Shown here piece after piece: positions 3,865 through 60,743 of a stretch of DNA of 64,000 bases; position 1 is the first letter of the stretch; the number at the start of each line of letters is the position of its first letter. The notes below the pieces were generated by a model, which saw only the letters and a list, made by a program, of their open reading frames with translations, was not told the origin of the DNA and made no database searches. Both the position numbers and the translations under genes were made by a program. The stretch is from Schmidtea polychroa (lineage: Eukaryota), in the NCBI GenBank assembly GCA_044892525.1, contig CM097885.1, positions 162,502,001 to 162,566,000 on the forward strand, read 5' to 3'.

Positions 3865-3964
3865 TGTTACAATTCAGAAAATGACCAAATTCAAATTTTT
3901 ATTTTCTTGTTTTTATCACAAATTAAAACAAGAATAATAATATTAATTCTTTAATATTATTACA
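3865..3964 (-). repeat. 3' LTR (100 bp, TGTAAT...GTAACA)
   Basis: Identical over 90 bp to 10429-10518. Confidence 0.9.
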
Positions 3965-4239
3965 TGTCTCTCTCTAGTGTCCATTCGCCGTAAAGGTTCG
4001 GAGGTCTTCTTGATCTCTGACTTCTCACTCGGTTATAGCCGTCGGGCATAGTCTCCGTTAAGAGAGAAGGCTGATTAAAAATTGTCCTCGGCGTTCTCCT
4101 GAGAAGTAAATGTTTTTTCTGTTGCTTTTTTGGTGCCTGGGGAGTATATCTGGTTATTGCTTGATAGTCGTAGGACAGGCTCCTCTCCCTCGACGTCCAT
4201 TATCCACGACATGTTTCTTCCTTTTGGCATAAGATATTG

Positions 4240-5655
4240 CTAATTTGTTAACTCATGATTGGAGTACGGCTTGTATCCGACTGATTGGCCTTGGTCGAAT
4301 GTGCTCACTATTGGTCTTCTAATCTGCCTTCCAAAAACCATTTCCGCCGGAGATTTACCATAATAGTTTGCTGAGATGCGATGATAAAATAACATCTTCT
4401 GGAGGAAGACGTCAAATTCCATATGACACTGGCTTAGCTTCCAACATTTGATCCCCTTCTTTATTGTTTGGACAGCTCTCTCTGCCCTCCCATTTGCCAT
4501 TGGAAAGTAAAGCGGAGATTCTATCTTTCGAGCTCCTTGATTCTCAATCCATGCTAAACATTCTTTTGATGTAAACTCAGGAGCGTTGTCGGATACTATG
4601 CATTCTGGTATTCCGAATCTGGTGAATACTGTTCGTAGGCATTTGATGACGTTTTCAGTTGTGCGTTCTTTGGTTCTAAAGGCTTCGATCCATCCCGATC
4701 CTGAATCAACGATTATTAAAATGTTTCCGACGTCTCGGAAGTACGCCCAATCTATGTGAAGTCTTTCAAAGGGTGTGGCGTTTGGCCACTCGTGGACTGT
4801 CTTCTGTTTCTGGGGGCGTAATGTAGAACATATTTCACATTTTTTCACATATTGTTCGATGTCTCTCGTTATACCAGGCCACCATGCTACGTTTTGAATC
4901 ATCCTGCAGGATGATTGGATGCCACTGTGAGATTCCTTGTGGAACGAATCTATCGCCTTTCTTCTTAAACGTTCTGGTATGAATAGACGAGATCCTTTAT
5001 ATAGCATTCCATTTTCGATTGAGAGAGATGCTGAAACCGCCTTAAATGAGAATTCATACTGACTGCATTTTGACCATTTTCCACGTTTTACCCTGTTCAT
5101 AATTCCTTGTATACGAGTGTCTAATTGTAGCTCACTTTTTACTTCTTGGGGTTTTAAAATTGTTTGAAAGACGACACTGTGCATTCTAGCATAGCTCAAT
5201 GTCTTAAAATCGACCGCTTGATTACTAAATCGTAATCTCGTCAATGCATCCGCATGAGTAATTTCTTTTCCTGGAACATGTGTAATGATGTAATCATATT
5301 GCATCAGATTTAAAGCCCATTTCGTAATTCGCAGAGAAGTATGATCGGGTATTGCTTGATTACTTCCTAATAAATATATGAGCGGGCGGTGGTCAGTTTG
5401 TAATGTAAATTTTCGCACTAATAGAAAGTGGCCTTATCTTGAAACTGACCAGACTATGGCTAATGCTTCTCTCTCTATATTAGAGTAGTTCTTTTCTGCT
5501 TCCGATAATGTCCTCGAGACGAATATGACTGGATGTCCTTCTTGTGTGAGGACTGCTCCTATGGCTTCTTTCGATGCATCTGTGGTTAATGTTGCTTCTT
5601 TTTTTAGACAATACGATCTAACTATGGGATGGGAACTTAGTTCCGTTTTTAGCTT
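4240..5655 (-). mobile_element. RNase H + integrase of the Mag-like element (one in-frame stop)
   Basis: LTTDASKEAIGAVL, YSNIEREALAIVW, TDHRPL, HSG..CEIC zinc finger, FERLHIDWA, IVSDNAPEF, NGRAERAVQT. Confidence 0.95.
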
Positions 5656-5659
5656 ATCT

Positions 5660-8600
5660 GCTCTCTTCTGATATAGTGTAGCTCCTTGTTGTCTTCTTCT
5701 AATTCTGCAGGGGTTACGTTCTTGTTGATGAAGCTTTTCAATTGCTCCATGTTTTGAACGAACTCTTTGATGTCGTCGACGCTTGGTTCCGAATGGCCTA
5801 TCTTTTCCAACAAACGCTTTTTAGATTCACTGTTGTTGGGCGTAGGTGGGGAAGAGAAAAGTATACATGCATTTCTATCACGCCTATCAAACCTCATCAT
5901 TTCGTTTAGGCACTCCCCCTACATACTCCACATGATCATTCGCATATTCCCACGTATGAGCCCGTGGTGATGTTCCACGTTGGTGCTGCTCACACGGGTC
6001 GGAAAAAGTTAGCAGGTGAGCCCCTGCCTTAGGACTACTCCTAACCCTTTTCTCGGTACGGGTCCTACGGTGCCTTAGAAGGACTTACCCATGCTTCACG
6101 CATCATTCGGTCCACCCTGGTCCAAAGGGGACGACGTTCCAGCTTCTGCTACTCCTTCAGGATCCTCCACTCATGAAAATTCAATCATAGCCAATCATAC
6201 ATATAATTAACGAAATCGGAAAACAAGCGAACAGCTGTATTAGAACAAAACATCAAAATACACTCAAAATTATGTAAGTAGACACAAAACATTAACGACT
6301 TGTACCAAATAATGTCACTCCTTCGAGTTCGTTCATGGTAGTAGGGGAATCGGGACTTGAGAGAAAACTCACTGTGAGAATGCTTCTCCTTCCGCGAGCA
6401 TCTCGTCGATGTCAACGGGCAACCGGCGATCTTCGAGGAATTTGATACTGCCGGCCGGAACTACCCGGAACACTTCTTTGGTAGGAATGCAATGAGTAAC
6501 GGTAATTTCTTGGATTGTTGATTTGGCTGCGAATAATGATGCCTCAAGCGCAGCCATGGCATTTCTGCGCTTCTGATTCTTTTCCGAGCGCGTCGGCCGC
6601 TTACGCTTTCGATGGGGAAGGGTAGTTGCTAGTGGGGGCTGAGTGAGGTGTGGCCCGAGTATTGGAGCCAAGATAGGGTCCGAGGGTCCACCAGCCATAG
6701 GCCGATAACCAGAGAGAACTGGGGCGGGAATTGGTGGCAATTGTGGACCATGCCCCTTGCAATTAGTTACTGACGATGATTCAGCTGATTGGTGGTGCCC
6801 GGGGAACACATTAGTCCCCTCTTGTATTGGGTATTCGTGAACTCGCTTCGCTATCTCTGCTTCGGAGTATACTTTATGTAGTGCCTCTGATTGGGCTTTT
6901 ATGGTTAGCCGCTGGCATCTACTCTCTTCCAGGAGACTGTCACGGCAGTGCTCCAGACGTAGAATCTTACTCTTCTCCTCTTTCATCTGTGGCGGGGAGA
7001 ACCACGTTCCCTCATAGAGGTCAATTCTCTTCTTTAATTCCCCAATGTACAAGTGCAACTGTGCGATGTCTGCATTTTTGTCCGAACACGAGAAGCATGG
7101 ACGGAGATCTTTTCTGGACTGGATCGGTGTAGTCATCTGAAGATAAAGAAGGTTTCCATTAAGGCGGGGTTGCGAACAGCTTTCCCTCATGATTATTTAG
7201 TTCCCTCAACATACAATTTCGGTGACCCTCGATCGGTCTCCGCTCGGAGATGGTCCTTTAAAACCATCGTTTACTACGACCGCTCATATTCACATCAACG
7301 TAAACCATGCAAGATTAAAAGAAAACGGGAGTCATAAATAAAACACTTTATTATATTAGCTATGTACTGTATATCTCCTACATGTTGTTGATTTATCTAA
7401 GTTATTCTGCTAATTTTCGGGAAAACCTTCGCTTTTATAATTATAACATTTAAATTTTCCGTTGTTTGTTATCGGTGACAATTTTATTCAATATCGTGAC
7501 CTATTGAGAGTCGTTGGGTCTGAATGTCACAGGGAGTGAAATGACTATCGCTTGGAGTACTCGACCTCCCCGTACCAGAAATGAGAATTTGAAAAAACTC
7601 GTCGAGAATTTTAATTATTACTTCGAATTATCTAAAAGTTCGTTTAAATTAGCGGCGTTAGCGTAGTCATGAAAACCCTAACTAGGTCGTCAATTCATTC
7701 CTACTCTGTGCATGTATGTGAGTATGCGTATATTTCACTGTGTTAAGATTATAGTATGCCGGTATTACTCTTACCCACGGCTAGACAATTCTCGTTGAAA
7801 TTAATCTCCCTAAATGATTTCGATGTCGCTGTCTATGTTCGCACACACAGTCTCACACTGTTACATAATTACGTCATTTTCCTACCTGAGTTACTACGGT
7901 GGATCGGCTTGCTTGTGTGCATCATTGGACACACTGATGATTTTGCATGGCGTGGATACCTGATTTGATACTAGAAATATTCAGTTAGATCTATCAACAC
8001 AGTGTTTCGAATTTGGAGTTTTATTATCGCCTTGCCAAGTTGGAATTATGAGTGAGTGATTATAAGGTCTACTCGATGTTTATTTCTGCTAATCTCTATC
8101 AAGCGCCGTTACTGGACCTTCATGGCCTCGTTATCCGGGTATTGGATGTGCTCAGGCGAATGCTTATCGGTCGTCTACGACTAATTTCCAGCAGGCCAAG
8201 ACTAAAAGATAATTTCCCTAGTTTGCTGACCTCAGATTTTCTCAAGGCTGTCGTGAATATTTACATTCACTATCGGATGATTTTCATGTGTCGTATAGGT
8301 TCTACTATTAGCGACGATAAGGCCTGTCAAGATTGATTGTAGAGTCTGATTAAAGCCGAGAGGATGGATGTACTCGCTAATGCTCTAGTAGTTCAAATCT
8401 CTGAGGAAAACTAGAGACAGTTTATACAGATCTGTCTGGGATTTTCCTTTGCAGCCGAAAACTATGATCCCTTCATAATCAATTCACCGAAATTCGAAAG
8501 TTTAAAACAATAATCATGCCGAATTGGAGCATAATGAAGTACGGCAGTACGTGGAAATGAAGATTCTGTCTCATGTCTTTTCCGGAAAGTTTCAAACGGA

Positions 8601-9979
8601 GTTATTATTTGTATCAATTGTCGCAATTCTGTCTCTCCTATGGATGGAAATTTTCTTATGCCGATCGTCGATATCACTCGGTGGTAGATTCTCCATTGTT
8701 ATGTATCTACATCGCTCACCAGATGTCCTCACCCCTCCTGACTCACCCAAGCACAGCATGCATCGCTGCCGCCGCACTTGGACCGTCAGGAAGGACGATT
8801 CCAACCCCTCAGATTTCTATCTTCTTCATCGAAAACAATCATCGCAAATAAACAATAAATTCGTCCGACAATTCAATATTAACGGAATATTATGATTATA
8901 TAAAACAGTTAGTTACCCGGCGACCACGCCGTCCGAAACCCGAACATGACACAAAGTCGGAATAATCCTCGTACACTTTATTTTCCATTCTCAGTGGGAT
9001 TTAAATTCTCGATTCGATGTCTTTATTTTCATTACTCGTCTACGAGTATCATCTAGCCCATTCATTCGCGTTTCGGCATCATGTCCGAATTTCAGACGAC
9101 ATCGTCGCCGGTCGCATGGAGAGAGAGAACATCTTTATAATCAAATAGAAAAATTTATTAAAAATAAATTATATTGTTCATTCCTTTTTATATAAAAACA
9201 AAATTAAAATATGCATCATACTTACAATACGTTTCCTTCGAGAGTATTGGAAAAATATCGGTTGAAGTTTTCTGTTCCCAGGTGAATAATATTAATGCTC
9301 TGTGGAAATCTCGATAACTGTATGAATAGTGTTTCTTGAGTATAGTCCTTGCGAATTGATTTAATGAAGTTTGCTGTAGAGTTTGGTTAAAAAGTGGTGG
9401 TTAACAAGTTAAAATTTTACCTGTAGAGTTTGGTTAAAAAGTGGTACTCTACAGATATTTTCCGTTTCTTTTATATTATTTTCTGTCCAATCAGGACGCG
9501 GCTTGCGTGTAATATTATTATTTATTACTATTTTTATGTTTTTTAATGCAATAAGGTATATTTTAATGACTTTTCTCTATTTTTATTATTATTTTATTTA
9601 TTTTTCTATTTTTTATTATTTCCCTCCTGTTTTTCCTGTGACTTTATTGTTTTTTAGTTATAGTCTAATTTTTTGTTTTAATTAGTTTATGTATTTTTTT
9701 GATAATGATTTATTTTTATTTTATTTCCTAATTTCTGGTTTATTTTTCTTACATTTATTATTTTATTTCCTTATGCTATTATGTGTGGTGCGTTATTTTC
9801 TTTTCTCATCTTGTTTTTCATCTTTTATTGTTTCCATTGGTTATTTTATTCCTTTTATTTCTGTTATGTTTATCTAATTTTATTTGTTCTTCTATTTTTC
9901 GCGCTTTTCGTGCAATTTATTTTATCCCCCTTATTTATTCTTAACCGGTTTTGCAATACTCTCGAAGCTTGGCCCAACA
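5660..9979. mobile_element. Nested fragment of a different LTR family (TGTTGGG/CCCAACA terminus at 9979) carrying accessory ORFs
   Basis: Gag frame breaks at LHDS|TGTTGGG (9979); other junction with RNase H near 5660; A-rich (minus) LTR-like segment about 9000-9979; orientation unresolved. Confidence 0.65.
6369..7190 (-). CDS. Unknown LTR-associated accessory protein, copy 1 (CxxC, coiled coil, TWFSP, Pro-rich linker, basic patch)
   Basis: 273 aa open frame; homologous segments at 18426-18780 and 60094-60743. True start uncertain. Confidence 0.7.
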   Translation of the reverse strand: MRESCSQPRLNGNLLYLQMTTPIQSRKDLRPCFSCSDKNADIAQLHLYIGELKKRIDLYEGTWFSPPQMKEEKSKILRLEHCRDSLLEESRCQRLTIKAQSEALHKVYSEAEIAKRVHEYPIQEGTNVFPGHHQSAESSSVTNCKGHGPQLPPIPAPVLSGYRPMAGGPSDPILAPILGPHLTQPPLATTLPHRKRKRPTRSEKNQKRRNAMAALEASLFAAKSTIQEITVTHCIPTKEVFRVVPAGSIKFLEDRRLPVDIDEMLAEGEAFSQ

Positions 9980-10428
9980 CTGTCATGTAATCCTGCAATT
10001 AGTGACATTGTAATCATGTCTTCTGTTGGATTTGTTGATTCCTTTAGTTTGGAGAATTGACAGAGTTCGGCTCCCTTTCTTAGTCTGAGAATGAAATCGC
10101 TGATTCCTTCTAATTCCTTCTGCTTTAATGAGAAAAATTTATTTCTTTCTACTATCACTAGTCTTGTCTTTGGTTGCAAGAACGATTTTATAGTTCTTTC
10201 GATTTCTTCGTATTTGACTGTTTGAATATTTCTCGGGGACAGCATTGATATGACTTTGCCAAGGGCCTCGAACCCGCATACGGCAATGAAATTGTCTGTT
10301 ATTACATTCTGTTTATCCGAATCAACCCATTTGTTAATTCGAGTCATTGCACTGAATGTCATCATCCATGTTTGACATTGATCTGCATTTGTGAGATCTA
10401 ATACTGGAAATCCTGCTCGTGACGCCAT
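9980..10428 (-). mobile_element. gag N-terminal part of the Mag-like element, truncated by the nested LTR
   Basis: MASRAGFPVLDL..., ERNKFFSLKQKELEGISDFILRLRKGAELCQF is typical retrotransposon gag. Confidence 0.85.
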
Positions 10429-10518
10429 TGTTACAATTCAGAAAATGACCAAATTCAAATTTTTATTTTCTTGTTTTTATCACAAATTAAAACAAGAATA
10501 ATAATATTAATTCTTTAA
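10429..10518 (-). repeat. 5' LTR lacking its outer 10 bp
   Basis: Matches 3865-3954; TATTATTACA missing, replaced by target-site sequence. Confidence 0.9.
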
Positions 10519-10962
10519 ACATTTATTAGTATTTTGTTTCCTTTTTATTTCAATGAGAATTTCGCGAAATTTATAAAGGCAGTTCAGAAATAAATATTGC
10601 TGGGTTATCGGTGAATTGAGATATTAACAATTATTTATCTGAATCCAAGAATGCCTCGACTAACATCAATTATGAATTTTAAATATAATGTTTATTAATC
10701 AGTACATTTACAATTGAATCTCCACTTTACTTATTACAATCACAGAATGATTAGACAATTTTAGTTTTTAGTTTTTATTACTATTTTATGTAAGAATTGC
10801 TACTATTCTATCAATTTTAAATCTTGTAGCCAGTAAGTTTCTTCTAACTGTGGATAAAAGTTTTTCTTTTTTAAGAAAATCCTTGATTCGGTCAATTATA
10901 TCACAGAAACGACTTAATACATTATATGTGAATAACCATCTCATAATAGAATAGAACGGCGA

Positions 10963-11205
10963 CTAATTAGGGTGGTCATCAAATTCTATTTCTTCAAGAA
11001 AATTCTTATATTGTCTATGAGTCTTTGAGTTTGGTCGAATATAATCAACAACCTTAAGAACTGTTTTCATAACATTTTCATACTTCAGATATTTGTCTAT
11101 CAAATTTTCACGGTGAATAATACAATGAACAGATATAAAATCAGGTATTCTGGGATTACTTTTTTGAAAGATTAAAATTGATATGGAAAGGCAATTTATG
11201 TTCAA
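10963..11205 (-). mobile_element. hAT (Buster/GTF2IRD2-like) transposase fragment
   Basis: HCIIHRENL motif, VMKTVLKVVDYIR. Confidence 0.8.
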
Positions 11206-11512
11206 AATATAATAAAAACGTTTTCATTATTCATGAACGAAGTTGTTCCTAATTTCAGAAAAAAATTAATTTTTAAATTGTATATTGTATACAAAAATAA
11301 TAAGATATAGCTTCCGTAATTTTTTATAAATTTTATATTTCCCGTGTTTCATTTAATTTTATATACATAGCTATTTCGGAAATCTTATGACAACAATTTA
11401 TTAGTAATTTAAAACAAATCATTAATTAATTATTTAATTTCAATTTCTTCTCAAAAACAAAAAATAAAAAAGTACAAAACTTATTTTTTTAGCCAGTTCT
11501 TAACTTAGTACA

Positions 11513-12050
11513 TTGTTCTTAATAATAGAATGGCTGAAGTCAAGTTCTCTTTGATCGAGGCTCTTATATCACTCTTAATAATTTTTAAAGCAGAAAATAA
11601 CTTTTCAACACTAACTTGTGTCGATGGCATTGCAGTCGAATAATTTTTGGATATGTATCAATTGGGTTTTCAAGGTTCAATTTTGATAAACAGTCATATT
11701 TCTCAATCTCTTAAAGAGTTGAAAAATTCATTCCGAAATTTAATATTCTTCACTTCTAATGGTGTAAATTCTTGATTTTCTCTTGCATATAGACGTCTTC
11801 GCTTTATGCGTTCTAAATTGTTTAAATATACATTGAAGTATTTTTCGTTTGAAGATGAATCTGGATCTGAACAGTCACCAATGTTTATGTATGTATCGTC
11901 CTCTTCTCTTAATAATTCAACAGGTGTTGTGTCAGGATTTTCAGTTGTTTGTAAATTTTTATTTCGTAATGCTATTTTGTAAAGAGTTTCTTTTGCTTTT
12001 GCAATTTGATCATGACTGTAGTGTAGTGTTAATTTTTTTATTATGAAATT
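11513..12050 (-). mobile_element. hAT transposase C-terminal dimerisation remnant
   Basis: AMPSTQVSVEKLFSALKIIKSDIRASIKENLTSAILLLRTMY*. Confidence 0.8.
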
Positions 12051-12632
12051 GTAATTAGGATTTGTAATGTTTTGTTATTTTTATTATTATTATTTATATT
12101 ATATGAAAATATAAAAAAACTACCTCGTGTAATAATAAAGAATTGATGAACCAAAAGAGAAAAGGATTGTGGAAAACCAGGTTAGCGAAACAACAGTGAA
12201 AATGCAGGAAGTTATAACTCAAATAGCAGAAGTAATAATCGTGAAGGAGTTTAATATGGCAAGAAGCAACATATTGCGAACGAAAAGACCTCAAAATGGA
12301 AACTCAGCCAAAAAAAAGAAACGCAAACATTGGAATAAGATGCCGTAGTAAAGAAGACAATAACATTCGGTAGAGAAGAATTGGGGCTGTTGGGCTAGTG
12401 CCAAAAATTGAGAGCTTGTTTTAATGAGTCGGAAATACATAGCATAAAATCCGCACCAAGTTGAATTAAAATCTATGATTATACACCAAATATTACAAAG
12501 TAAAGTACACAACACATTGAGAACAAATAAAACACGTAGGGTTGCGTTGATTGTCTCTAAAAATAACAAAATCTGAGCTTCTTTGACAACGGTTTCATGG
12601 ATTTCTATTTCAGTATAAAATCTTTTAAGTCT

Positions 12633-14208
12633 TTAAAAATATTGAAACTCTTGTTTTTCCAAATCACGTTTGAAAATTTTCAACTTCATTTCAAATGCTT
12701 TTATAACGTTAAAAGCCTCGTCAACGGTTTTTCCAAAACCTTGCAACTTAGTGTTAAGTTCATTTAGATGTGAAGTAAAATCTGTAAAGAACATTAGTCT
12801 GCTGAGCCAGTCAACATCAGTTAACTCTGAATACTTCTGTTTGTTTACTTCCATAAACATTCGAATTTCATCAAGGCATTCCACGAAACGTTCCAGCACA
12901 CGGCCTCTGCTATTGTACATTAGTAACCCAGAGTGAACGGACTGGACTTCATTTAACAGCAGTTCAAATTTTTTCTTATTCAAAGCACGAGCAGTAATGA
13001 AATTTACAATTTTTGTTACAATTTTCATAACATCTCTAAGTTCCTTCAAACCGGATTTTGCACACAAGGCTTCTTGGTGCACAATACAGTGGGTGTCCAA
13101 CATGTTTCGTAAACAAATTCACGAAACCCGCATCTTTTCCAGTCATACTTGGTGCACCGTCAGTCGTTACAGAGACTATTTTATTTACGTCAAAATCTGC
13201 ATTTTTAAGTTCATTCACGACTTTTTGGCATATTTCAGCACCCGTTGTTGTTCCAGATATTTTGGTTAGTTTTATTAGTTTCGTTTTCTTTCAAATATCT
13301 AGCAATGATGGCTAATCGAGCAGACGATGTTACATCAGTACTCTCGTCCAGGCAAATAGAGAATGCCTGACATAACTTGATGTCTTCTTTTAATTGATTC
13401 TCAATGTTTGAATTCAAGTTAATTATTCTCTCTTTTACTGTATTTCGACTAATTGGCAGATCTTTTATTCGCTGAAAATTTTTTTCTTTATTTGGAAAAT
13501 CTTCAAACAAATATGTCACACATTCTAACCAAGTTTCTTTGATGTAATTACCATCACTGCTTAGCTATTATTTTGGAAACTTCGAAACTTGCAGACACTA
13601 AGTTAGATGTACTTTTAACAAACTTTACAAACGAACAGGATTGTAAATTTTCATTTTTTAACTGGCGCAATATATATTCTTTTTGTTCATCTTCGCTTTT
13701 GCCAAGAAGCCACTTGTGATTACTTTCATAGTGGTTTAACTGAAGATGTTCGACAAACAACGCTTTCAGAACACAAGATACACAATGCCTTACTTTGTTT
13801 GTTGATTACTCCATATCGTTCAGTCCACCGATCTTGGAATTCCCTGCCACTTCCTTCTTCTGAAAGTTTTATTTTTTTTGCTTTGAACACATTTTATTTA
13901 TCAAAATTTCTATTTCTAAATTATTAAATATTTATAAAAAAATTCAATCTTTCACAAATAATAATGTCAACAAGATGTCTGCATCATCAAATTCGTGCGC
14001 ATCTTAACTTGTTTATTTTTACTTGTAATACAAATGCGGAATATACAAAAAAATGATAGAAAATAATTTATAGATTTAATCATAAAAAAATATATATTCT
14101 GCCATCTAAAATTTACACAAATTTGTTTTATCTCAAATGTTTGGCGAGCCACACAAAATCGTCTCGCGTGCCACTTTGGGTACGCGTGACATAGGTTTGC
14201 CAGCGCTG
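12633..14208 (-). mobile_element. hAT Buster/GTF2IRD2-like transposon, 3'-truncated, frameshifted transposase
   Basis: TIR CAGCGCTGGCAAACC at 14208 with nnnTAnnn flank; ALCILC zinc finger, LDESTDVTSSA, TTDGAPSMTG, HCIVHQEALCAK, HLNELNTKLQG in several frames. Confidence 0.9.
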
Positions 14209-14707
14209 ATTTAGACCAATGTAATCGGCTACTGAAGCTGTTATAATTAGTAAAGTTATAAATTCAGATCAGTCGAGAATCATGAAATATTGTTTTATCC
14301 ATCAGTATGATCATCAACCAGACATGGTGATCAGGGATATTGCTCATTTTAAAATTCGTTTATCCTTTCCAGTTCAATTCAATGATAAACTTTCTTTTAT
14401 TGCTTTACGATTTTTCATAACATACCTTTGTACATCATTTACAATAAAGAAATTGGTTTAAAATACAAATTATATAATAAAATATACAAAATAAATTAAC
14501 CAATTAAATAATTATAATTACAATTGACATATATTATTAATATTATTACAGTTATATCTTTCAGTGTGATTAAATATACTGTATTAAATCAAAATGAATT
14601 TTATTAAGCAAGTTTTTATTTTGATCAATAATCATTTGCTTGACTCCAAGTTTATAAGCCAACAAAGTCTGTCCTCAAGTTTGACAATCTTTTGAAATTC
14701 CAACTAC

Positions 14708-14913
14708 AAATTCTTCTGCAAGTCGCCTTGCATTCATATAATCCAGACTCCTCTCCTCGATAATTCTCTTAGCGATGACGCTATTAATAAAAGTTTCGAA
14801 AGCATTATAATCTCTCCAAGTTGTCTCAATACGAAGCAATGGAGTAACAATAGCCCGATGATAGATTCGACGTGTGCAATTATCTTTTGACTTTCAGCAT
14901 ATTGAGTTTTAGC
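14708..14913 (-). pseudogene. CSTF3: CstF-77 (CSTF3/suppressor of forked) gene fragment with a 1 bp frameshift
   Basis: TQYAESQKIIA + RRIYHRAIVTPLLRIETTWRDYNAFETFINSVIAKRIIEERSLDYMNARRLAEEF versus recalled human [66 protein letters not shown]. Confidence 0.85.
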
Positions 14914-14990
14914 CTTCACAATAGTGTTGTAATAAGCACTGTGTTATCAGTATTTAGCTTGCTGAGTCAATTGTATCATTGTGAAAATAT

Positions 14991-15895
14991 TGTTGGGGTT
15001 CAACAAGAGAGGCACAAAAATGAGGTGAAAATTGACAAAAACACCAAATTCAGAATAAAAATTTAAAGTACAAAATATTAATTAAAAATCAAAAATTTTA
15101 AAAAATGAATATTTTCTGGGGGAAACTGGTATGGGCGGATGCGAAATAATGAGACGAGTTCAGCTATAATAAAATAAAATCAATGGGGGGTCCCTAAAAG
15201 GAATAAATTACAAAAAACAAAAATTAATTAGAAATTAATTAACTAATGGAAAACCCGAGCTAATGGGAAACCTGAGCTAATGGAGAACCCGAGCTAATGG
15301 GAAACCCGATACAATGGAAAACCCGAGCGAATTGAGAAATCCAATTTCGGGAAGGCAATTAATTTAGCCGGAGAAATCCAATTGCGGGAAGGCAATTAAT
15401 TTAGCCGGATAAAATAAAAGAGCCGTCAAAGAAAATGAACAAATTCCCTTCAATTAAATTAGATCTCCAAGAGGAAGCCCGGGGGGAAATAGGACCAAAG
15501 ATAATTGGCAAAAATAAAGTCAATTATTAAACGAGTATAAAAGCAACTGGCAAGAAAACAAAATGCCAGTTGGTCGAAGAAAAGAAAATAGAAGTTTGAA
15601 GAGAGCGAAAAGGGAAATATTAAAGTTAGTAGAAATTAAACCATTTAAAAATCGAACGTACCAGAAAGGGACATCTCCCGTTGGAAGATCTACCCCTGCG
15701 TGAGATTTGTTAATAAATTGAAAAGTGCAGACAAAACCTGATTGTATCAAGTGTGAGTAAACTAATACAAGTGTAAAAGTGTAACTGCATCAGTGTCAAT
15801 AAAGATTTTGTGTTGGGTTATTTATTTATTTATTTATTTGGAAAAGAACACAAAGGAGTCAGACCGTAGTACCGACTTGCATTAAAAACCCAACA
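14991..15895 (+). repeat. 5' LTR (905 bp, TGTTGGGG...CCCAACA)
   Basis: About 99% similar to 24326-25199; five 17 bp and two 37 bp internal tandem units. Confidence 0.95.
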
Positions 15896-15899
15896 TATT

Positions 15900-15917
15900 T
15901 GGTGAGCCCGACGTGAT
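15900..15917 (+). promoter_or_regulatory. Primer binding site, tRNA-Trp-like (TGGTGAGCCCGACGTGAT)
   Basis: One mismatch to the recalled tRNA-Trp PBS TGGTGACCCCGACGTGAT; 4 nt after the LTR. Confidence 0.8.
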
Positions 15918-16211
15918 CAAAAGTCGGTGAAAATTTGTTGAAATTGTGATAATATTTGAGTGATACCGAAGAATAAAAAGATCGGTGAAAATTTGTTGAG
16001 ATTAGTAAAGTATCGGAAAAATTTGGAAAAAGATAATAATAATTAAATAAATAAATATTGAAGTGAAACGTTTATTTGAAAGTGGTGAACATTTATTTGA
16101 GAATTATTAAAGTGGTGATTTTATAATTGAAGCAAAGTGGAAAAATTTGTAACGATTGATTGTTGAAAAGTCAAAATTAAAACGAAAGGTAAATTTTGTA
16201 ATTGTAACACT

Positions 16212-18425: not shown

Positions 18426-18780
18426 CCAGCCGCTTCCTCTTGGGCTTATCCTTCGCGGCCGGAGGGTAAATGGCTGCCAACTCCACGGACAACGGCCGGA
18501 TTTGACTTATGGTGGCTCCGTGAACCGCTTGTTCATTGCGTTCGGTTTCTAACGCGCGGAGTTGGAGTTTCAAGGCCCGGATCTCCATCTGATCCTGCGC
18601 GTTTTGAGTCTGCAATTGGAGGACCTGTGTCAACTTCTTCCTCATATCTTGAGGACTAAACCAGGTGCTTTCTAGTTCACGGCACCGTCCCTTGAGTTTG
18701 TCCACTCGTATACGCAGCTCCTCGGCCTGTTTTTGGGCTTCTTCTCTGTCCTTTCGTAGATTTTCGCATAGTTTGATCAC
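18426..18780 (-). pseudogene. LTR accessory protein copy 2 (coiled coil, ESTWFSP), 3'-truncated by the deletion junction
   Basis: LRIRVDKLKGRCRELESTWFSPQDMRKKLTQVLQL aligns with LHLYIGELKKRIDLYEGTWFSPPQMKEEKSKILRL; ends in basic KPKRKR. Confidence 0.7.
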
Positions 18781-18985
18781 TAGATAAATTACAACGATTA
18801 CTGGCTTGCAGCATTCCCCTTGTTCAATATAATAAGGTCAATATCATGCATAACGATACTTTAGCTATTAAATAAGAAATTTATTCAAAAGATATTTTAT
18901 TAAAAAGAGTAACACATGATCCTCAACCAATTTGATTATTTGTCACAATACACGCAATTATAGTAAGTCAATAGTTGGTCCTTGA

Positions 18986-19351
18986 TCACCCTCGGCATTT
19001 GCGGGGCCTCCCTCTCTTTCGTGGGGATGCTATGGCCTCCTCTAGCTCCTCCACGGGCACTCCTTCTCTTTTCGCCCGGATTTGTTACTCGATCTTCCTG
19101 AGTCGCATCTGAGCGGCTTCCACCTCCCAGGCCGCTTGGTCTCGGGCCTCCTGCAGCCGGTTATTCTCCGGTTCCACCTTCACCCACGCCGGGGCATCTA
19201 CTTCGGGGCCTGTCCGGATTACTCGTTCCGTACAATCTAGGTCCCTTCCCTGACCCCACCGATGTATATGGTGCCAGATGTAACGGGTCCGGAGGCGGGT
19301 AATCGTCTGTCGGTGGTTTTCTTCATCGCTGAACTCATCTGATTGGGACAT
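18986..19351 (-). pseudogene. Unknown small AT-hook protein ORF with one internal TAA
   Basis: After acceptor cag|at ATG: MSQSDEFSDEE...LRKIE*QIRAKREGVPVEELEEAIASPRKRGRPRKCRG*. Confidence 0.55.
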
Positions 19352-20284
19352 ATCTGTAGTACAAATATTAACGATCATAACCAATGTGGAAAATATACCC
19401 AAAATAAATAATACTTTAACTACCAAAGTTACTATAAGTAATGTAACTACTTTTAACATGAAATTTTTTATTTAATTTATCGATAAAATTCTTAATCAAT
19501 TAAAAATAAAAAAAACATTTATCTAGATTAAGCATTAATGTTGAAAGGTCCATACCTCGACAAAAAAAAATTCCCTCACTGTCATATTTGTTTAAACTTA
19601 CTATTTCACTATTTATCATTTATTTACCACGAGATGGTAATTTAAAAATCTTTATGTTAAATTTTGTCGAATTCCCGGGAATTAGTAAATTACTACTGAA
19701 TTCGGGCACATCGGGTGATAGGTATTAGTGGCGGGCTTAGTTCTCGTTTACTTACCTCTCCTTGATCGTGCTCGTCATGAGTGGTACAATCGACCTTTAA
19801 GCAGCTCGGGTAATTTATTTATTTACCGCAAATTTTCATTTCTAGGAATGCTGGGTGATGATTTTTCTTGGCTGGAGATAGACGAGTTTAGCTTTGGGAG
19901 ATCGTCGTACGACTCCTCGTTAGGGATTCTCTTTTGGAATTCGTAGTAGTTTTGTATTTATAATTTATTAATCACAATAAAGAAATCTTGGGTATTTTAG
20001 TAATAGTGGTTTGATTCTCTAGTAAACAAATGATATGATTACGATTCATTAATGATTTAGATAGGTATCTCATAGGTTTTGATAATATACTTCCACCCCT
20101 ATCTCCAATTTACTTAGATAGTGTTAACATTTTCTAGAGGGGGGTTACTAAAAATAACTTTTAAGGATTTCGCTCCTTCTTATTGGATCTAAAGGGTTGA
20201 TACTAAATTTGTCTTGGGGCAAATCTTAAATCGATATTTCGATTGGAATATTGATTTTGGTGAGCAATAATTGCTGATAGAGAT

Positions 20285-20415
20285 AACAATAATAATTGTA
20301 ACAATAATAATAATAATAATAATACCATGGTAACAATAGTAGTAATAATAGTAATAATAATAACAAATAATAATAATGGTAATAATAACACTAATGATGA
20401 TGGTTATAATAATGA
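20285..20415. repeat. Degenerate (AAT)n microsatellite
   Basis: Runs of aataat/aacaat/agtaat. Confidence 0.8.
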
Positions 20416-20613
20416 ATATAATTATTTCAATTTGTAATTCATGACTCTAGCAAGATTTTTATAGCCCTAATTCTAACGTCGTATGCTTCGTTGCAGGTCA
20501 TTATCGCTATTTGTACTTTGTGTATTTATAGCCAAGTATTAAATATAACTATCTATAATTCGTATTTATACCTATTTATAGATTATATTTATAATTTATA
20601 TCAAATAACTTTC

Positions 20614-21020
20614 AACCATAACCATTGGGGATTTGTAATTATAATTTATAGATAACATTTATAATTTTATCATTTGTGCTTTTAAGGTTGAAGAGATTAT
20701 TAAAGAGATTCTTTCATTTTTATAGAGTAAAATTTAACCATAACTATTGGGAATTTATAATTATAACTCATATATAACATTTTATCATCGATGTTTCTAA
20801 TACTGAAGCGATTATTAAAGAGATTCTTCCATTCTTATAAGGTAAAAGTTAACCATAACCCTTGGGAATTTCTAATTATAATTTATATATAACATTTTTA
20901 TCATTTATATTTCTAAGATTAAAGGGATTATTAAAGAGATTCCCCTTCATTATTATAAAGCAAAATTTTCCCATAACCATTTGGAATTTATAATTATAAA
21001 TCATATATAACATTTATATC
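20614..21020. repeat. Tandem array, about 3.5 copies of a 115-122 bp unit
   Basis: Units start AACCATAAC at 20614, 20736, 20851 and about 20969; each full unit carries GATTATTAAAGAGATTC. Confidence 0.85.
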
Positions 21021-21584
21021 TTTGTGGTTAAAAATCTATCTATTATCCTTACTAGGTTACCTATTTAGAGTTAACATATACATACATAACTAGATTTATA
21101 TTTTCTGATCTATATACACTTGCTTATGGTCTATTTTTATAGTTAAGATTTATCCGTGTTGTTCATTTATCATTTACCCAAATGTATTAGAGTAGGATTC
21201 CTGATCAATTTGTAATTTGTTTCTGGAGAATTACATTTATGATATCTACATTTACTTTAATTAGCCTATCTAAATTAAACTATACTTATACACATGCCGA
21301 CGATCCTTCTCATTTTATTACTTTACTGTAAATTCTTATTTCAAATTCTAGTTCGGCATCTGTCTAAGTATACTTACAATTACTATTAAGGGTCAACCAG
21401 CTACATGAGTGTGAGTGCAGGATTGTGTCATTTTAGGTACGAGTTCTACTCAATTTAGAACCTTAATGTAGAGTTTTTGTTCGTGATTTTGAATGTGGAT
21501 TTTACATGTGTATTAACTGAAAGTCGGGAAGAATATTGCTTCCATGGCCCCACTGTGACCACTTCCACAAACCTTAGTGTTGTG

Positions 21585-22828
21585 TGTTGAGTCAACCATT
21601 TACGGTCGACCTTACATAAATACAAAGAGTCAGACGGAGGGTTTCCTCGACCTAACTCCATGGCCGGACCATGAAGTAGTTCGACCCCCGAAAGACCCGA
21701 ACAAAAAAAAGGATGATATAATATTAGATTGCTATAATATTGATAATGCATGTGCTATAAAAATTAGATGCAGGACCGAACGACGACGCAGGAATACCAG
21801 TACGCCGTCGAACCTTCGTACATCACTGGAGAAAATCAAAAGCAAGAGACATCAAAAAATGCAATTACTTCGATTCCCCTATATAATTGATAATAAATTG
21901 AAAAGTGATTCACCAATGTAATAAACTCAACAAATAAAATACTCATAAATTGAAAAGGTAATTCATTAATGTAATCAACACATAAAATAATCATAAAAAA
22001 AAATAATTCATTAATATAATAAAAATCAACAAATAAAATGATAACTAATTTAAAAAGTACTTCATTAATGCAATAAAAAAAATCAACAATTCTTACTATT
22101 CTCGTTGGCAATACTTTCTGCAAAAATTGGCATAAAAATAGTGATTGATTGTGACTGAAACGTGTCAGTATATATACCTATTTTGTACACGTGTATGTAT
22201 TGATGCATTAAAACAAACTTGAATTCTTTTTATTCCAGAACTTTCTATTTTGTAATTTCGATATTTTTAATAGCAATTTTTGTGCCATAATTTTTGTTTT
22301 TATTTTTATATTTTTATTCTTTAATTATTTTTCATTAATTTTACGTCCATGATGGATTTGGAACGGTTCCAGAACATTCTATTTCACTTTTAATTTAATT
22401 TTTATTTTAATTGGTGTTTTATGGATTTCTTTTTACGAATTTTCATTTTTATTACTAATTTATTGATTTTGTCTAAATTTTTTTGTTTAAGATAGCTTTT
22501 ATGATGGTCATCGCCATTTTTATGGAATGTTCTGGGTTTTTCTGGAATTTTTTACTGTTCTTACCAGCTTTTAAGTTATTCGAGTTTGTTTCTTGTAACT
22601 CTATGTTTATTTGATCATTTTTTGAGTTAGATTTTGCATGACTTCTTGCTTTTGGTATGATTTTATTTAATTTCGGTGTTTATGCTTTTGTTGTTTTCTC
22701 CTTTAATTAATATTGTTTATTTGATGTAATTTTAATATTTAACTACACTTTTTGTTTTTGCATGTTGTGTACCTACACCTTTCAGTCACAATTCAAGTTT
22801 GGGTCTAGAAGTCAGTTCTAGCCCAACA
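21585..22828. mobile_element. LTR-like segment of another family (terminus CCCAACA at 22828)
   Basis: TGTTGGG on minus starts exactly where the KLHL20 frame breaks; candidate other end TGTTGAGTC at 21585; no matching TSD found. Confidence 0.45.
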
Positions 22829-23159
22829 ATAGCTTTAAAATAAGGACTACATGCAGATAACACAATTCTATGGGCTAAGATTTTTTTTTGACCAACAATC
22901 AAGGCTACGTCACATAATTCGCCGTGTTTTCTTAGTTGATTAATGGATTCCAAAGTAATTTTTGGGTGCTTCTCAGAGAAGTAGCATAATTTGTTAAACG
23001 TATTAGAATTGAATGCACCCCCAGAACATTGATTTCCAGTAATAATCTTTTTCTCATTTTGTTACTGAATTAAAAAAATATGAAGAAAAATAAAATTTCT
23101 TACCTATTAATGAAAAAAAAAGCAGCCAATCAGAAGCCATTTAGTGCATTGGCTAGAAT
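22829..23159 (-). pseudogene. KLHL20: KLHL20/diablo 5' fragment (UTR exon, 39 nt intron, first half of BTB domain)
   Basis: [51 protein letters not shown] versus recalled human [51 protein letters not shown]; GT-AG intron 23065-23103. Confidence 0.9.
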
Positions 23160-24062
23160 CTGAGAAAAAGAAAATATTAAATTATGGAAAAATAAATCGA
23201 ATTACCTAGTTCGGATAGATAATCAAAATTTTCCCTAAATAAAATATCAACATAATAAAATATTTATTTAACATTTTTCAAGATTTACTTCATAAACTCT
23301 TGAGCTGTTGCCGACGATAACTAAATCTAAAATTTATTTTGTTGTTTTACTAATTGAATTTTGTCTTATTTCGCATAGATGATATAATTAGGTAATGGTA
23401 CTTAATAGAGTTTAGATGAGTTTGTAACGATTGAGAAAAAAAAATTATTTTCGGTACAGTTTTCTATGAAGTTTTATGACAAACACATAATTTAGCTCTA
23501 TACAATGCGTCTAAATATTAATTAATAATTTAGCAAAAAATCTCATAGCTGGAAGAACTGATAATATAATATATTTGTTTAAATTTTTGATTCATTTAGT
23601 TATCCCATAAATTTCATGAGCATTGATAGAAAACTTTAAGGAATTACCTTCAGCCGAATTTTTATGAGTGGAATATATCTTGGTTTAAAATAATAATCTA
23701 ACATAGCAATAAATGTTTAAAGGATTCTTTATCATTTTGTTAACAATCATTCTTAATTTATCATATGATTTGTTTGTTATAATGGTTTAGTTTATTAGGA
23801 TTTGTTGATATGTCTTGAAAGGAGGCCACGTGGTATTTTGTAAAAAAATAAAGTAGTACGATTTATCATACTTTGTCGAATTTTCCAATAATAAATGATT
23901 AAGTTTCCCTGCGATTGTTTTAGACGTTCAAGAACTATTTTTAACAATATTTACATAATGATTAGTAACGTCTGTTATCTATGAGTTTTATCTCAGCTTC
24001 CATCTTTCATATCGAAGATTTTATAAATTCACTAAAGTTTTAATTGGAAATTTAAATTAGGG

Positions 24063-24244
24063 NNNNNNNNNNNNNNNNNNNNNNNNNNNNNNNNNNNNNN
24101 NNNNNNNNNNNNNNNNNNNNNNNNNNNNNNNNNNNNNNNNNNNNNNNNNNNNNNNNNNNNNNNNNNNNNNNNNNNNNNNNNNNNNNNNNNNNNNNNNNNN
24201 NNNNNNNNNNNNNNNNNNNNNNNNNNNNNNNNNNNNNNNNNNNN
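24063..24244. other. Assembly gap (others at 34193-34369, 42553-42805, 43457-43711, 48717-48901, 50543-50693)
   Basis: Runs of N. Confidence 1.
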
Positions 24245-34300: not shown

Positions 34301-37300
34301 NNNNNNNNNNNNNNNNNNNNNNNNNNNNNNNNNNNNNNNNNNNNNNNNNNNNNNNNNNNNNNNNNNNNNTTATTTTTACCATTGAATTTATTAAAAAGTG
34401 AGTTTGAAGACTATAAATCAGTAATATGTCGATGTTTGTTGATACTCACGAATTTTCGACACTGCCTTTTTCAATATCACCTTTTTAAAACATATTAATA
34501 ATACAAATACTTTATTCAACCGGAAGTAGAATTTTAATGTTTTTTAAGGTTGGAACAATATTATAATGATAAATAATGTAATTGGATGACATAAAATATG
34601 ACAGAATCTCAAAAAACTATATTGGATTTTTACCATTTTATATTAAAAATGTTTGGTTGGATTTCATGTGACGTATGAAATCAATGTTATAAAATGAATA
34701 CAACATTAACCAAATTATCATTGTCAAACAGAATTTAATTAGACCGATTAGTGAATGTTTGTTTCACAGTGAACTTGAGATTTTTATTTTTTCACATGAT
34801 TTTAATTTATTCGCATAACACAATTGATTGTATCATTGTATCTAGACAAAATACGTATTTTTGAATTTTCTGACAGTAACGCCCTTTGAATTGGTCACTG
34901 TTAATATAGGAATTGATTAATTTCCAATAACAATTACAGGAAATTTTCGATAAGTGTCGCAAGAATTGACACAATTATTTTTAAATCCCATAAAAAATAA
35001 GGTGACAGTTATCAAATTTACAATAATCGATATTTGATTGATGTTTCGAGGGTTTTAAGTATCCATCAAAATAGCTATTGGGTGTGTCATATTAATCGAG
35101 AATTTTCTTTATCTCAATTTTTGCAATTTTTCTGAATAGCTGGAGCGTATTTTACTACATTCTAGATTTGCCATTACGAAGATTTCCAGGCGAAATTCAA
35201 TAATTTCAGGTGAAAGATGTAGACAAACCTACTTTCTATTTTTAATCCGATGACTTATTTTGATGCCAAAATTTATCCATTGCCTCATTTTTTTGTTACC
35301 TATTTATTCAAGAACGCTTCTAGTTTTGAAGAAACAAATTTATTTAATAAGATACTAATTATCAGTCTTTTTAATTTATAGAACTGTTAAGAACTGATGT
35401 AGGATTGCCAACTCCCGCAACCTCGAACCCGAGAGATCGTAAAATTGCGAACAGTATAACGCTCAAGAAATAATATAACGTCTGTTTTTTCACTTTTTTG
35501 GTTTACACAAATTAGTGATTTTAACTATATGATGACTAATACCATAAAGATTTAAACAAAACAATTATTTTTACATATTATATTTTACATTTTTTACATT
35601 TTAAAAGTGAAAAAACCTGACAGTGACAGACTAATAACGTGGGTAAGAAGAAAAACATAAAATCGCTCGCCGCGAACAAACAACTTAAATCAATCGAAGG
35701 GTCAAATTTTCGGAAAAATACTATCACGGGCCACAATAATAACGATTCAAGTAAACTTAGAATCAATTTTTTAAATTAAAAACATCCTTAATTCGAATAT
35801 GAATTCTAAAAAAAACAATTATTGATTTGATGTTTAAAATTGTGTCTGGGCCATATCAAAACGCTTCGCGGGCCACCGGTTGGCCATCGCTGACTTAAAC
35901 TTCCGGTGACAGTGAGCAAAAATAAATCTTGACTATCATTATTTTAGAGAAATCAAATAAAAGTTAAAACTTCAAAAACTGCACTTTTTTCTTGAAATAT
36001 TGTAAAAACGGAAAGACGGGAGATTTACATTTCCCGGGAGACGAGAGACGAAAGCCGATTCCGGGAGACTCCCGGCAAAAACGGGAGAGTTACCAAGCCT
36101 AAACTGATGTTGTAGTACGAGAGAACGTCCATATGAATGTTGCCCATTAAATCGGTTTAATTTAAAATAAGAATAGATAAAGAAAAAATAGGGTTTTAAA
36201 TTTCAGTTTTAAGAAATGTCCTTATTGACCTTGGCCCTGAGTATGAACTTCACTTTTCACATTGACGTTTAAATAGATGTTCTCATGCTTAAGAATTCAT
36301 TGAGAAACTCAATATTCAAGTTTTTATTTACACCACTAATGAAATGGGATTAGGAAAAATGGTATGATTCTGGTGAATAAATTTGTGACCTTAATTTTAT
36401 GGTTTTATATGGATTCTATTAACATCATGTTGTGAGAGCTCTCGTGGTGAGCTCTCATGGCTGTGTAAACGGAAAATGAATTAAAAAGACGAATCTTGAA
36501 CCTAGAGATTTGCAATTCCCGCGAACCAGATCCCCGATATCCCGTGGAAGGATGAAGTCACTTAGCCATAACGCTGTTGAAAATACGCAGGCGGGCGAAA
36601 CCAGACCATGGATGTTGTTGACGAGTTGGAATGTTGTAAAATTTAATGGAATATGGTAGAAAAGTGAAGCAGTATGTAAATGAAAGTTGAACGCTAGAAA
36701 ACGTAAGTCCTTCTATCGGCATCTAGGAACCCCAAAGTGAAGACGAAAGAAGGGAGCTCACCTGCTCATTGCTTTTTAGCCGTTATGCACACTACCAACA
36801 TGGTAGTTACCATGGTTGTTTAGGAGGGAGGATGATATATTATCAGCAACCCTAGATTATTAAAACACATCCCTAGATCCCAACAATAAAACAGAATCGA
36901 AGTTACCTATAAATGCTACCAGAATGGGAAAGCTTTCAGTAAAATCATTTATCTTTTTGTTCATTATTGATCTAATCCTTTTATTAATTTTTATTTAATT
37001 TTCAACTATATATCAGTAAACTGTATATTCGACATATATTTTTGGCACTACTTTGTTTAACAATAACCTTATTTTATAAACTGAATGATGATAATCACTT
37101 AATGTAAACTGTTTCAAAGATAATAGTTGGATAAGAAAAATAATTCTCTGGTCAATAATTCAGCAGAATAAGCTTCAATAATCGAAATAAAAATAAACAA
37201 AAAAAGAAAGAAATAAAAACAAATTCATATTAAATTAAAAAATATATAAAATATAAGTTAAATTAGTTTTCATCCAATTCGCCTTAAAAGCTGCAAGCTG

Positions 37301-59644: not shown

Positions 59645-60093
59645 GTGTAGTCAATCCTTTTTATTGTTTATATTATAAATTATAAGAAATAAATAGACCA
59701 ATCAGAATAATTGGAATTTGAAAGTAAATAACGATCAATAAATCTGATCTCTGGGATTCGGATAACTTCAATCTTTACATGGAACAAGGGTGATACCATC
59801 TTTAGTCAATATTTTTCCTATGAAGATTAATAGCCATTGCCTAAGCATTTTCCTGTCGTCCCCAGATAATTTAAAAATTCGTGTTACCATTTGTGTTCCG
59901 AAAAGTAGGATCGTCTCAGGTACATAAATGTCATCATCGCTGGGTAAAGTCAGTCCGTCACATTTGCTAAACGTACTATTTGGTCTACAAATACGGAACC
60001 TTTGATATTATTCGATCCAATCATTATGTCATCCAGTAATTTACCTATGTACTTTCCATTTCGAGCACAATGATTCAAAAGAATGTTCAATTA

Positions 60094-60743
60094 AAACCCT
60101 GTTTCTCGTGTTCGGATAAGAACACAGTTAACCGAACACAAAAGAAGAAATAAAGCTGCTGAAGACGATGATTGGCCTACTGGGGGGGGACCTGGTTCAC
60201 CCTCGTCCAGATGAAAGAGTCCATCCAGAAGGTACTGAGATTGAAACACTGTAGAGATAACCTCTTCGAAAAGAGTCGGACCCAAAGTACCCTCATACAG
60301 GAGCACTTCCAAGCCTTGTATCAAGTGTACACAAAGAACAAACTCGAGGCTAGAATCAAAGGGCTATATTAAGACAAGAGATCTAAGGTGCAGCTGTCAC
60401 CAATAGTTCAGTTTATTCAATGTTGATTTCAAGCTCTACCGCACCAACAGCCCTAACCGCTGAAACAAATGACAATCTAATCGTAATAGTCACGCATTAC
60501 CAGGCCTTCAACTCAAGCGATACGTCCACGTCCTAAGCGCAAACAAATCTCGTGCTCAGGGTCTAACAAACGCAAGCTAGCCAAAGAAGCGGCCGAAATG
60601 GGTATCTTGGCCACCAATATTTGTCCACCGGAGGTCGATCTCCCGATCTCTTGCACGAGCCTTCCTTGGATGTGAAACCAAGAGATCAGTTCAACCTAGA
60701 TGAAATCTTAGTGAATGCTGAGGACGAAATTTTCTGGCAATGA
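60094..60743 (+). pseudogene. LTR accessory protein copy 3 (frameshifted)
   Basis: PCFSCSDKN, GTWFTLVQMKESIQKVLRLKHCRDNLFEKSRTQ, ...ALYQVY, C-terminal NLDEILVNAEDEIFWQ*. Confidence 0.8.

Follow-up and report, generated by a model that had tools for sequence, protein, structure and literature searches.

What is a conserved open reading frame (ORF) doing inside a long terminal repeat (LTR), when the LTRs of Ty3/gypsy elements are usually viewed as regulatory sequence that encodes no protein, and solo LTRs as inert leftovers? The question is raised by a 64,000-nucleotide stretch of the Schmidtea polychroa genome (GenBank assembly GCA_044892525.1, contig CM097885.1, positions 162,502,001 to 162,566,000 of the forward strand), which we call the window. 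A sequence-only reading had described a 273-amino-acid ORF at 6369..7190 as an accessory protein carried by LTR elements. Here, we report that this gene lies within the LTRs of giant Burro retrotransposons, in sense orientation, that it is under purifying selection, and that the same LTRs contain a covarying RNA stem. Our preferred reading of its function, held tentatively and with less than even confidence, is a nuclear protein, made from a spliced transcript and acting as a dimer, that would activate the production of Burro RNA and resemble Tat or Tas. Two features of the window carry the argument:

5834..9979, minus strand: solo LTR of a family-1 Burro giant Ty3/gypsy element, 4,146 bp, TGTTGGG...CCCAACA
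6369..7136, minus strand: intact LTR gene of 255 amino acids, with CxxC, coiled coil, linker, basic helix and acidic tail

The frame 6369-7196 (minus strand) is open and contains all of the motifs originally quoted for it, but the likely start is the ATG at 7136. A start at 7190 was rejected, as conservation begins at the second methionine (MTTPIQ, 7136), with a YAG acceptor just before it.

A gene within both LTRs of Burro elements

The genome search covered 781 Mb in four large contigs and gave 6,224 candidate loci, the best 150 of which were scored. Many candidate loci are same-strand pairs, 26.3 kb apart in family 1 and about 30 kb apart in family 2. Among five family-1 pair loci examined, four each represent one element whose two LTRs both contain the ORF, although one of the 3' copies is broken; the fifth is a larger duplication. 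Family-2 elements measure about 34 kb; in three out of four, the duplicated block is the whole LTR including the ORF, and in the fourth it is the 3' 2.6 kb only, which also includes the ORF. All seven full elements examined carry the ORF within both LTRs, and in both families the ORF or ORFs run sense to gag-pol, which settles the placement and orientation that the sequence-only reading had left to be checked. The gene is present twice per full element, and in solo LTRs. A TGTTGGG start lies upstream of the ORF in 14 of 18 further sequences, and 4-bp target duplications flank all 11 solo copies with both ends located. For the solo LTR in the window the 4-bp duplication, read from the sequence, is CTGT (5830-5833 and 9980-9983), and its identity to the LTRs of two full elements is 96-97.5%. 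The TGTTGGG termini reported for the first two copies are both present, upstream on the same strand at 2.8 kb (9979) and 4.0 kb (22828). The suspected retrotransposon origin also stands, but the gene is inside the LTR rather than being an internal extra ORF beside it.

Intact elements are 30.5 kb (with 4.19-kb LTRs) and 34.4 kb (with 4.3-kb LTRs) long. Two family-1 elements have 4.19-kb LTRs that are 99.9-100% identical and encode a single frame of 4,736 or 4,811 amino acids, in which Pfam domains follow the order gag, CCHC, mononegavirus-like fusion domain (env), protease, reverse transcriptase (RT), RNase H, integrase and ankyrins. RING, TRAF/MATH and BIR(-RING) modules or ORFs surround the polyprotein (Pfam). 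By length, domain order and accessory modules as described in the literature, we classify these elements as Burro giant Ty3/gypsy, an assignment made on anatomy compared with the published description. Membership in Burro had been proposed as a possibility, and the full elements with the ORF do show the Burro domain set.

Other characteristics of these elements were recorded along the way. A primer-binding-like site (L035:8619-8645), which we take to resemble tRNA-Pro in both families, is offset by 5-7 nt from the LTR end in each. Directly after it both families have a 160-amino-acid RING (C3HC4) ORF (L035:9078-9572; L101:7852-8331), with a ratio of nonsynonymous to synonymous divergence (dN/dS) of 0.08. 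Young Burro copies (L251-L290) are dense mosaics of few haplotypes, and four of 18 contain a 16%-diverged segment of the RING ORF. On contig 2 (102.20-102.23 Mb), Polinton-like genes identified by eye (integrase, ATPase, capsid-like and DNA-polymerase-like pieces) are tandemly duplicated together with a Burro LTR.

Comparison of the window gene with nine diverged copies gave dN/dS of 0.06-0.09 in five (dS 1.2-2.7), with dS saturated in the other four, and the N-terminal domain alone gave 0.03-0.05 in the four computable pairs. Relative to an intact young subfamily the value is 0.136; between subfamilies, dN/dS ranges from 0.06 to 0.14. On these comparisons the gene is real and old, predates the split of the Burro families and is under strong purifying selection. 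The sequence-only reading had inferred past selection; purifying selection is confirmed, but it is ongoing, because intact copies sit in young elements with LTRs that are 99.9-100% identical. The ORF is intact in 19 of the 30 best-matching loci (a biased sample), and the genome also contains many decayed copies.

These data bear on two other explanations. It is barely credible that the ORF is neutral, or that it is a host gene that has been domesticated. The pN/pS values of private variants, 0.27, 0.28 and 0.61, are below 1 and could reflect host-level selection, but choosing copies as best protein matches biases pN/pS down, and we judge these values uninformative owing to this ascertainment. 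Against this explanation, there are 6,224 candidate loci, copies lie in LTRs with target duplications, many copies are decayed, and low dN with saturated dS excludes a neutral frame. The second explanation, which we regard as decidedly unlikely, is an anti-silencing factor, i.e., a nuclear dimer that would shield Burro LTRs or transcripts from PIWI/H3K9me3 silencing via chromatin or a silencing protein. The element encodes many host-interaction modules (TRAF/MATH, BIR-RING, RING, ankyrin), the ORF evolves faster than RT between the same lineages (dN/dS 0.136 versus 0.010), and the available text of one study reports de-repression of BURRO1 on loss of SMEDWI-2 (PMC8532177). However, no positive selection was seen, the N-terminal domain is highly constrained, and neither Pfam nor the profile search gave a match to chromatin or silencing domains.

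Three or four copies of the gene had been counted in the window. Three hold at the protein level and the fourth is an LTR remnant. The features concerned are as follows (a slash marks a predicted splice junction):

18426..22828, minus strand: solo LTR of Burro family 2, 3'-truncated, antisense within another LTR element
18426..18779, minus strand: ORF-B, the family-2 homologue (copy 2), truncated, without its own ATG and starting at a YAG/TG acceptor
18993..19351, minus strand: ORF-A, a second family-2 LTR gene of about 120 amino acids, with a premature stop in the window copy
5890..6139, minus strand: conserved GC-rich 3' block of the family-1 LTR, with donor-like GGGTAAGT at 6083-6092
36750..36885, plus strand: decayed LTR remnant ("copy 4"), consisting of the 3' block and a CCCAACA end
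60064..60743, plus strand: pseudogene (copy 3); the decayed LTR around it extends to near 61168

The homologue placed at 18426-18780 (minus strand) is recovered by tblastn at 18553-18720 (minus strand; E=3e-4); its profile score (E=6.5e-37) is circular, since near relatives of copy 2 sit in the profile. This LTR is 94-96% identical to LTR segments of a full family-2 element, and an internal antisense ORF was rejected in favor of a nested LTR. Copy 2 was said to share only the coiled coil, TWFSP and KPKRKR, but the window copy is truncated at 18426, and the family to which it belongs has the basic helix as well. A YAG/TG sequence is found at the start of ORF-B in all seven family-2 copies inspected, and dN/dS for ORF-B is 0.06-0.13 in four pairs, one further pair being saturated. 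ORF-A has an RLRTRYIWH motif and a C-terminal AT-hook-like PRKRGRPRK, and a counterpart at L101:5686-6048. Its dN/dS is 0.12 and 0.19, YAG plus 2 nt precede its ATG in seven of seven cases, and at least 150 copies are 99-100% identical to the query; there was no match for it in Pfam and no usable match in the ESM Atlas.

The homologue near 60094-60743 (plus strand) matches by tblastn at 60064-60357 (plus strand; E=6e-20) and scores E=2.4e-24 with the profile. As reported, it has both the PCFSC/TWF block and the acidic NLDEIL tail, but stops and frameshifts leave these in different frames. Its older relatives have 67-84% DNA identity. A second copy of this decayed region, 99% identical, is located about 16 kb farther downstream, shortly beyond the end of the window (contig 1: 162575964-162580390). 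The weak homologue reported at 36450-36650 (plus strand) did not survive: there was no tblastn match and no profile match at E<1. Only 62 bp of DNA in this region (36755-36816) match the 3' LTR block (E=8.5e-13), with CCCAACA at 36879, and no significant profile match to the protein lies upstream of the remnant. Copy 4 was thus rejected as a protein copy, being LTR DNA only. The 3' block itself is about 80% identical across subfamilies whose mid-LTR does not align.

Both solo LTRs interrupt other elements. The family-1 solo LTR breaks the putative gag of an internally deleted element:

3865..10530, minus strand: small Ty3/gypsy element, internally deleted, with gag broken by the solo LTR

This element has identical 90-bp repeats at 3865 and 10429 and Pfam matches to RNase H and integrase; its gag, without a Pfam match, is suggested by its place after the primer site. 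The family-2 LTR is nested in an LTR element at 14991-25200 (plus strand) with 0.9-kb LTRs that are 95% identical. The gag of this element has several zinc knuckles and is interrupted by a stop, and its pol is gone at the point where the Burro LTR is nested. Elsewhere in the window, Ser/Pro-rich open frames at 47763-48191 (plus strand) and 58181-58795 (minus strand) resemble host exons.

Predicted structure and homologues of the protein

The coiled coil, basic patch and acidic tail that had been read from the translation are found in the AlphaFold model, in these regions of the protein:

Residues 14-90: CxxC and coiled coil
Residues 183-214: basic helix
Residues 239-254: acidic tail helix

Helices at 15-43 and 48-89 are hinged at TWFSPP and followed by a short helix, a disordered linker, the basic helix and the tail (monomer pLDDT 68, pTM 0.23). 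Modelled as a pair, residues 6-115 give a parallel dimer whose two chains run in register, with Cys14 and Cys17 in the contact surface. The dimer scores 0.60 versus 0.03 for the best control, its contacts agree by at least 94% between runs, and pLDDT is at least 78; 21 of 30 solved pairs and none of 23 single chains attain this mark, and in animals 7 of 16 pairs do. The coiled coil, previously suggested to dimerize, is thus predicted to form a parallel dimer. Tails are acidic in 20 of 25 family-1 members and end in L-x-x-D-I/V-x-x-hydrophobic.

Searches with the protein returned no named relative. Pfam gave nothing shared by the ORF and all 34 alignment members, and a word-index search of 5.8 billion proteins (near lengths only), with the single protein and with the alignment, gave no match. 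Among PDB sequences nothing was significant, the best being the basic region of the basic helix-loop-helix protein CLOCK (E=0.21), and the best ESM Atlas score was 0.85, to an unnamed protein, again with nothing significant. Foldseek searches with the AlphaFold model, another of the checks first proposed, found no match at E<=0.001 in the PDB and viral sets, a weak test with a monomer pTM of only 0.23. A profile built from 34 natural copies did find 16 proteins at E<=0.001, 15 of them on the N-terminal domain and mostly within chimeric gene models; P0016 was rejected as a homologue, as it matches on a basic stretch only. The family probably spans more than one species, because the one remote homologue checked against the genome has no match above 41% there.

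Predicted expression and an RNA stem in the LTR

If the gene is expressed from its own repeat, the following signals may be involved:

9468..9493, minus strand: predicted core promoter, with an inverted CCAAT at 9487-9493 and a TATA-like box at 9468-9477; putative start near 9445
9220..9225, minus strand: predicted first splice donor GTAAGT, near LTR position 755
9154..9159, minus strand: conserved AATAAA, candidate poly(A) signal
8913..9111, minus strand: candidate response element, a conserved long RNA stem whose head varies and which has a donor-like GGTAA at its end
7137..7141, minus strand: predicted splice acceptor TTCAG, abutting the ATG at 7136
22092..22176, minus strand: predicted family-2 promoter and first exon, with TATATATA at 22168-22176, TTTCAGT at 22153-22160 and donor ATA/GTAAG at 22092-22099

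In 11 of 12 family-1 LTRs, the inverted CCAAT and TATA-like boxes stand at a constant distance from each other around position 490-510 of the LTR, and a GTA-type donor lies within about 15 nt of the 9220..9225 site in eight of nine aligned LTRs. YAG abuts the ATG in eight of ten diverged copies and is at most 3 nt away in all ten, and the DNA upstream is not conserved. In family 2, TATATATA and the initiator-like TTTCAGT lie at LTR positions 655-680, with a donor ATA/GTRAG, in all seven LTRs covering the site. These motifs suggest that joining ATA/GTRAG to the YAG/TG acceptor would make an in-frame ATG. The LTR gene is probably spliced. One short LTR (L122) considered as a spliced copy was rejected, as it is a deletion. 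In 10 of 11 LTRs the AATAAA follows the CCAAT box by 297-374 nt. Foamy viruses suppress 5' polyadenylation by means of a donor that precedes the poly(A) signal, according to the available part of PMC3694450; Burro family 1 has the same donor-before-poly(A) order, whereas no conserved counterpart of the AATAAA was seen in family-2 LTRs.

Linkage between sites should break at the transcription start, because the flanking sites lie at opposite ends of the packaged RNA. For family 2, 24 elements were mapped, 18 of the two closest types were read site by site, and r2 was calculated on 17, one being left out for a missing 5' part; the elements are related, not independent. From LTR position 689 to the end there are two types, which agree with the type of the 5' internal region in 17 of 18 elements, and positions 1-580 vary independently. 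The r2 minimum (0.14-0.15, 17 elements) falls at 581-681, at the predicted start and first exon, and no break was seen near the LTR 3' end in the 18 elements. ORF-B is linked most strongly to the 5' internal region (r2 0.53), then to the 3' end (0.33-0.38) and to U3 (0.15; 17 elements). This pattern would therefore place the genes in R/U5, implying strong-stop DNA near 4 kb. For family 1, 24 elements were mapped and 18 used; recombination is found everywhere and no single start site is picked out. Taken together with the promoter motifs and the predicted splice-made ATG of family 2, the family-2 linkage argues against a U3 position, family-1 linkage being uninformative, and the gene probably lies downstream of the promoter, in R/U5.

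With an R/U5 of 3.6-4.1 kb, the length suggested by linkage, first-strand transfer would be demanding. The protein could accordingly be imagined as a nucleic-acid chaperone or particle component that aids transfer of the roughly 4-kb strong-stop DNA, like ORF1p of long interspersed elements (LINEs) or hepatitis delta antigen. Proteins of the LINE ORF1p and delta antigen type likewise combine a coiled coil with a basic helix, and the ESM Atlas lists delta antigen at 0.78, which is a chance-level score. We nevertheless consider this explanation very unlikely: Burro Gag has its own CCHC knuckles, the run resembling a nuclear localization signal and the acidic tail better suit a nuclear role, and there was no significant match in the Atlas, the PDB or Foldseek.

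The RNA stem at 8913..9111 folds with the same basal stem in 12 family-1 LTRs (z -0.6 to -6.2; window copy -6.2). Of its 31 pairs, nine have two-sided changes, and 92% of cells are paired versus 27-47% in slid controls, for a structure drawn from the window copy and applied to 12 related LTR rows. The frequent G-U pairs suggest that the stem forms on the sense strand. An Rfam scan of window positions 5800-23000 gave no match. Conserved blocks in the family-2 LTR, after the first donor (21523-21824, minus strand), also appear hairpin-like by eye.

A long conserved stem with a branched, variable head also fits an export adaptor like Rev, Rex or Rec, whose dimer would bind the stem via the basic helix and export unspliced RNA of 26-34 kb. 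In the available text of PMC5568270, Rev-like proteins are defined by a coiled coil, an arginine-rich motif, a structured element located within or close to the LTR, and export of unspliced RNA. Remote homologues of the Burro protein carry RRRPNRNRRRRERRR-type arginine runs, with 10-12 Arg in 20 residues in four of 11 inspected. The runs of several are much like that of Rev. P0010 comes near Pfam REV (E=0.0013, below the cut-off), and P0004 and P0011 each show a class-1a export pattern, at an equal distance past the Arg run. We regard this explanation as unlikely all the same, though it ranks next after the activator. No export-signal pattern follows the basic helix in the tail of the window protein, and such patterns occur in 7 of 25 family tails versus 16.4 expected from shuffles. 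The basic helix of members in the genome is mixed Lys/Arg, with 4-7 Arg (six in 20 residues in the window protein), and a stem located before the acceptor would mark all unspliced LTR RNA, with splicing itself only predicted.

Proposed function and comparison with known systems

A nuclear role of the protein is likely, judging from its sequence. For the activator that we prefer, a promoter within 0.5-0.7 kb of the LTR's beginning would start a transcript whose short first exon is spliced to the acceptor before the ORF, the splice itself creating the ATG in family 2. Two chains would pair as a parallel coiled coil, which in family 1 would be held shut by the CxxC motifs of the two chains, brought together and able to bind zinc. 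Import of the dimer would depend on the basic helix, which would also contact nucleic acid, in the simplest case the hairpin RNA of the LTR or else the promoter. Host transcription factors would be drawn in by the acidic amphipathic tail. The AT-hook-like gene ORF-A, also in the family-2 LTR, is counted in favor of this reading. Because promoter, first exon and ORF share one repeat, the protein could be provided in trans from a 3' LTR or a solo LTR.

Several observations weigh against an activator of this kind. Spliced DNA copies are lacking: for the family-2 junction none was found versus 334 unspliced, and a search with one family-1 junction pattern also found none. In family 1, r2 falls to 0.06 at the ORF start, below the 0.10 across the predicted transcription start, and since it is low at many places, the family-2 break could be template switching in a conserved stretch. 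ORF-B has neither CxxC nor acidic tail; therefore, activation cannot depend on the tail in every member. The stem begins about 330 nt past the predicted transcription start; TAR of human immunodeficiency virus (HIV) lies closer. Pfam, PDB and Foldseek searches linked the protein to no activator, Tat and Tas included, in either sequence or fold, and the arginine runs of the remote homologues point toward Rev instead.

A broader possibility, loosely held, is that Burro elements are complex retrotransposons with an independently evolved circuit similar to that of Tat and Rev. The regulator genes and the RNA element would lie in an R/U5 of 3.6-4.1 kb, strong-stop DNA would measure about 4 kb, and each 3' or solo LTR would be a self-contained spliced gene driving the family in trans. 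If the protein is a trans-regulator, retrotransposons evolved retrovirus-style regulation independently, and many solo LTRs form a dispersed protein-coding family that PIWI silencing must hold down. Whatever the function, a gene that predates the Burro family split has been kept under strong selection within an LTR, and lone solo LTRs hold intact copies of it. This gives one target for RNA interference and one RNA element with which to probe how Burro is switched on, as well as what may be a natural case of a very long R/U5.

Burro/GYPSM1 elements were reportedly studied by Jurka (2007) and Grohme (2018). The accessory genes sag of mouse mammary tumour virus (MMTV), nef of HIV and tas/bel of foamy virus are located in U3 or overlap it, and so precede the promoter. 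The Burro gene is like sag, nef and bel in being a sense accessory gene in or overlapping the LTR and expressed from a spliced mRNA, the splicing being predicted for Burro. It differs in that it appears to lie downstream of the promoter, in R/U5 of a Ty3/gypsy element, and no similarity in sequence or fold to these proteins was found. With Rev, Rex, Rem, Rej and Rec it shares predicted coiled-coil oligomerization, a basic helix and a candidate structured element in the LTR region, as far as the available text of PMC5568270 describes them; on the other hand, the Burro gene is in the LTR and not in env, the window protein has no export consensus, and there is no significant homology.

The elements themselves match the giant gypsy-like Burro/GYPSM1 elements of planarians, whose anatomy is given in the available part of PMC6431247: about 30-34 kb, a single polyprotein of 4,200-4,800 amino acids ordered gag-CCHC-env-protease-RT-RNase H-integrase-ankyrin, and TRAF/MATH, BIR and RING ORFs. 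The LTR-internal gene is not named in the available portions of three Burro accounts (PMC6431247, PMC8532177, PMC11410931), although Grohme 2018 or Repbase may show the ORF. Literature searches for a retrotransposon LTR-internal ORF, long U5 or Rev-like gene gave no paper on this subject, judged by title, with exact-phrase searching that misses much. The elements are already known, and the gene within their LTRs may be what is new. According to the available text of the sources, plant Ty3/gypsy elements (Grande, RIRE2, Retand and Athila, PMC7264820; Ogre, PMC6431247) have additional conserved ORFs, with no known function, that most copies within a family carry. Those ORFs are described as internal, in most cases located after pol and before the 3' LTR, and many are antisense, whereas the Burro gene lies in the LTR and is sense.

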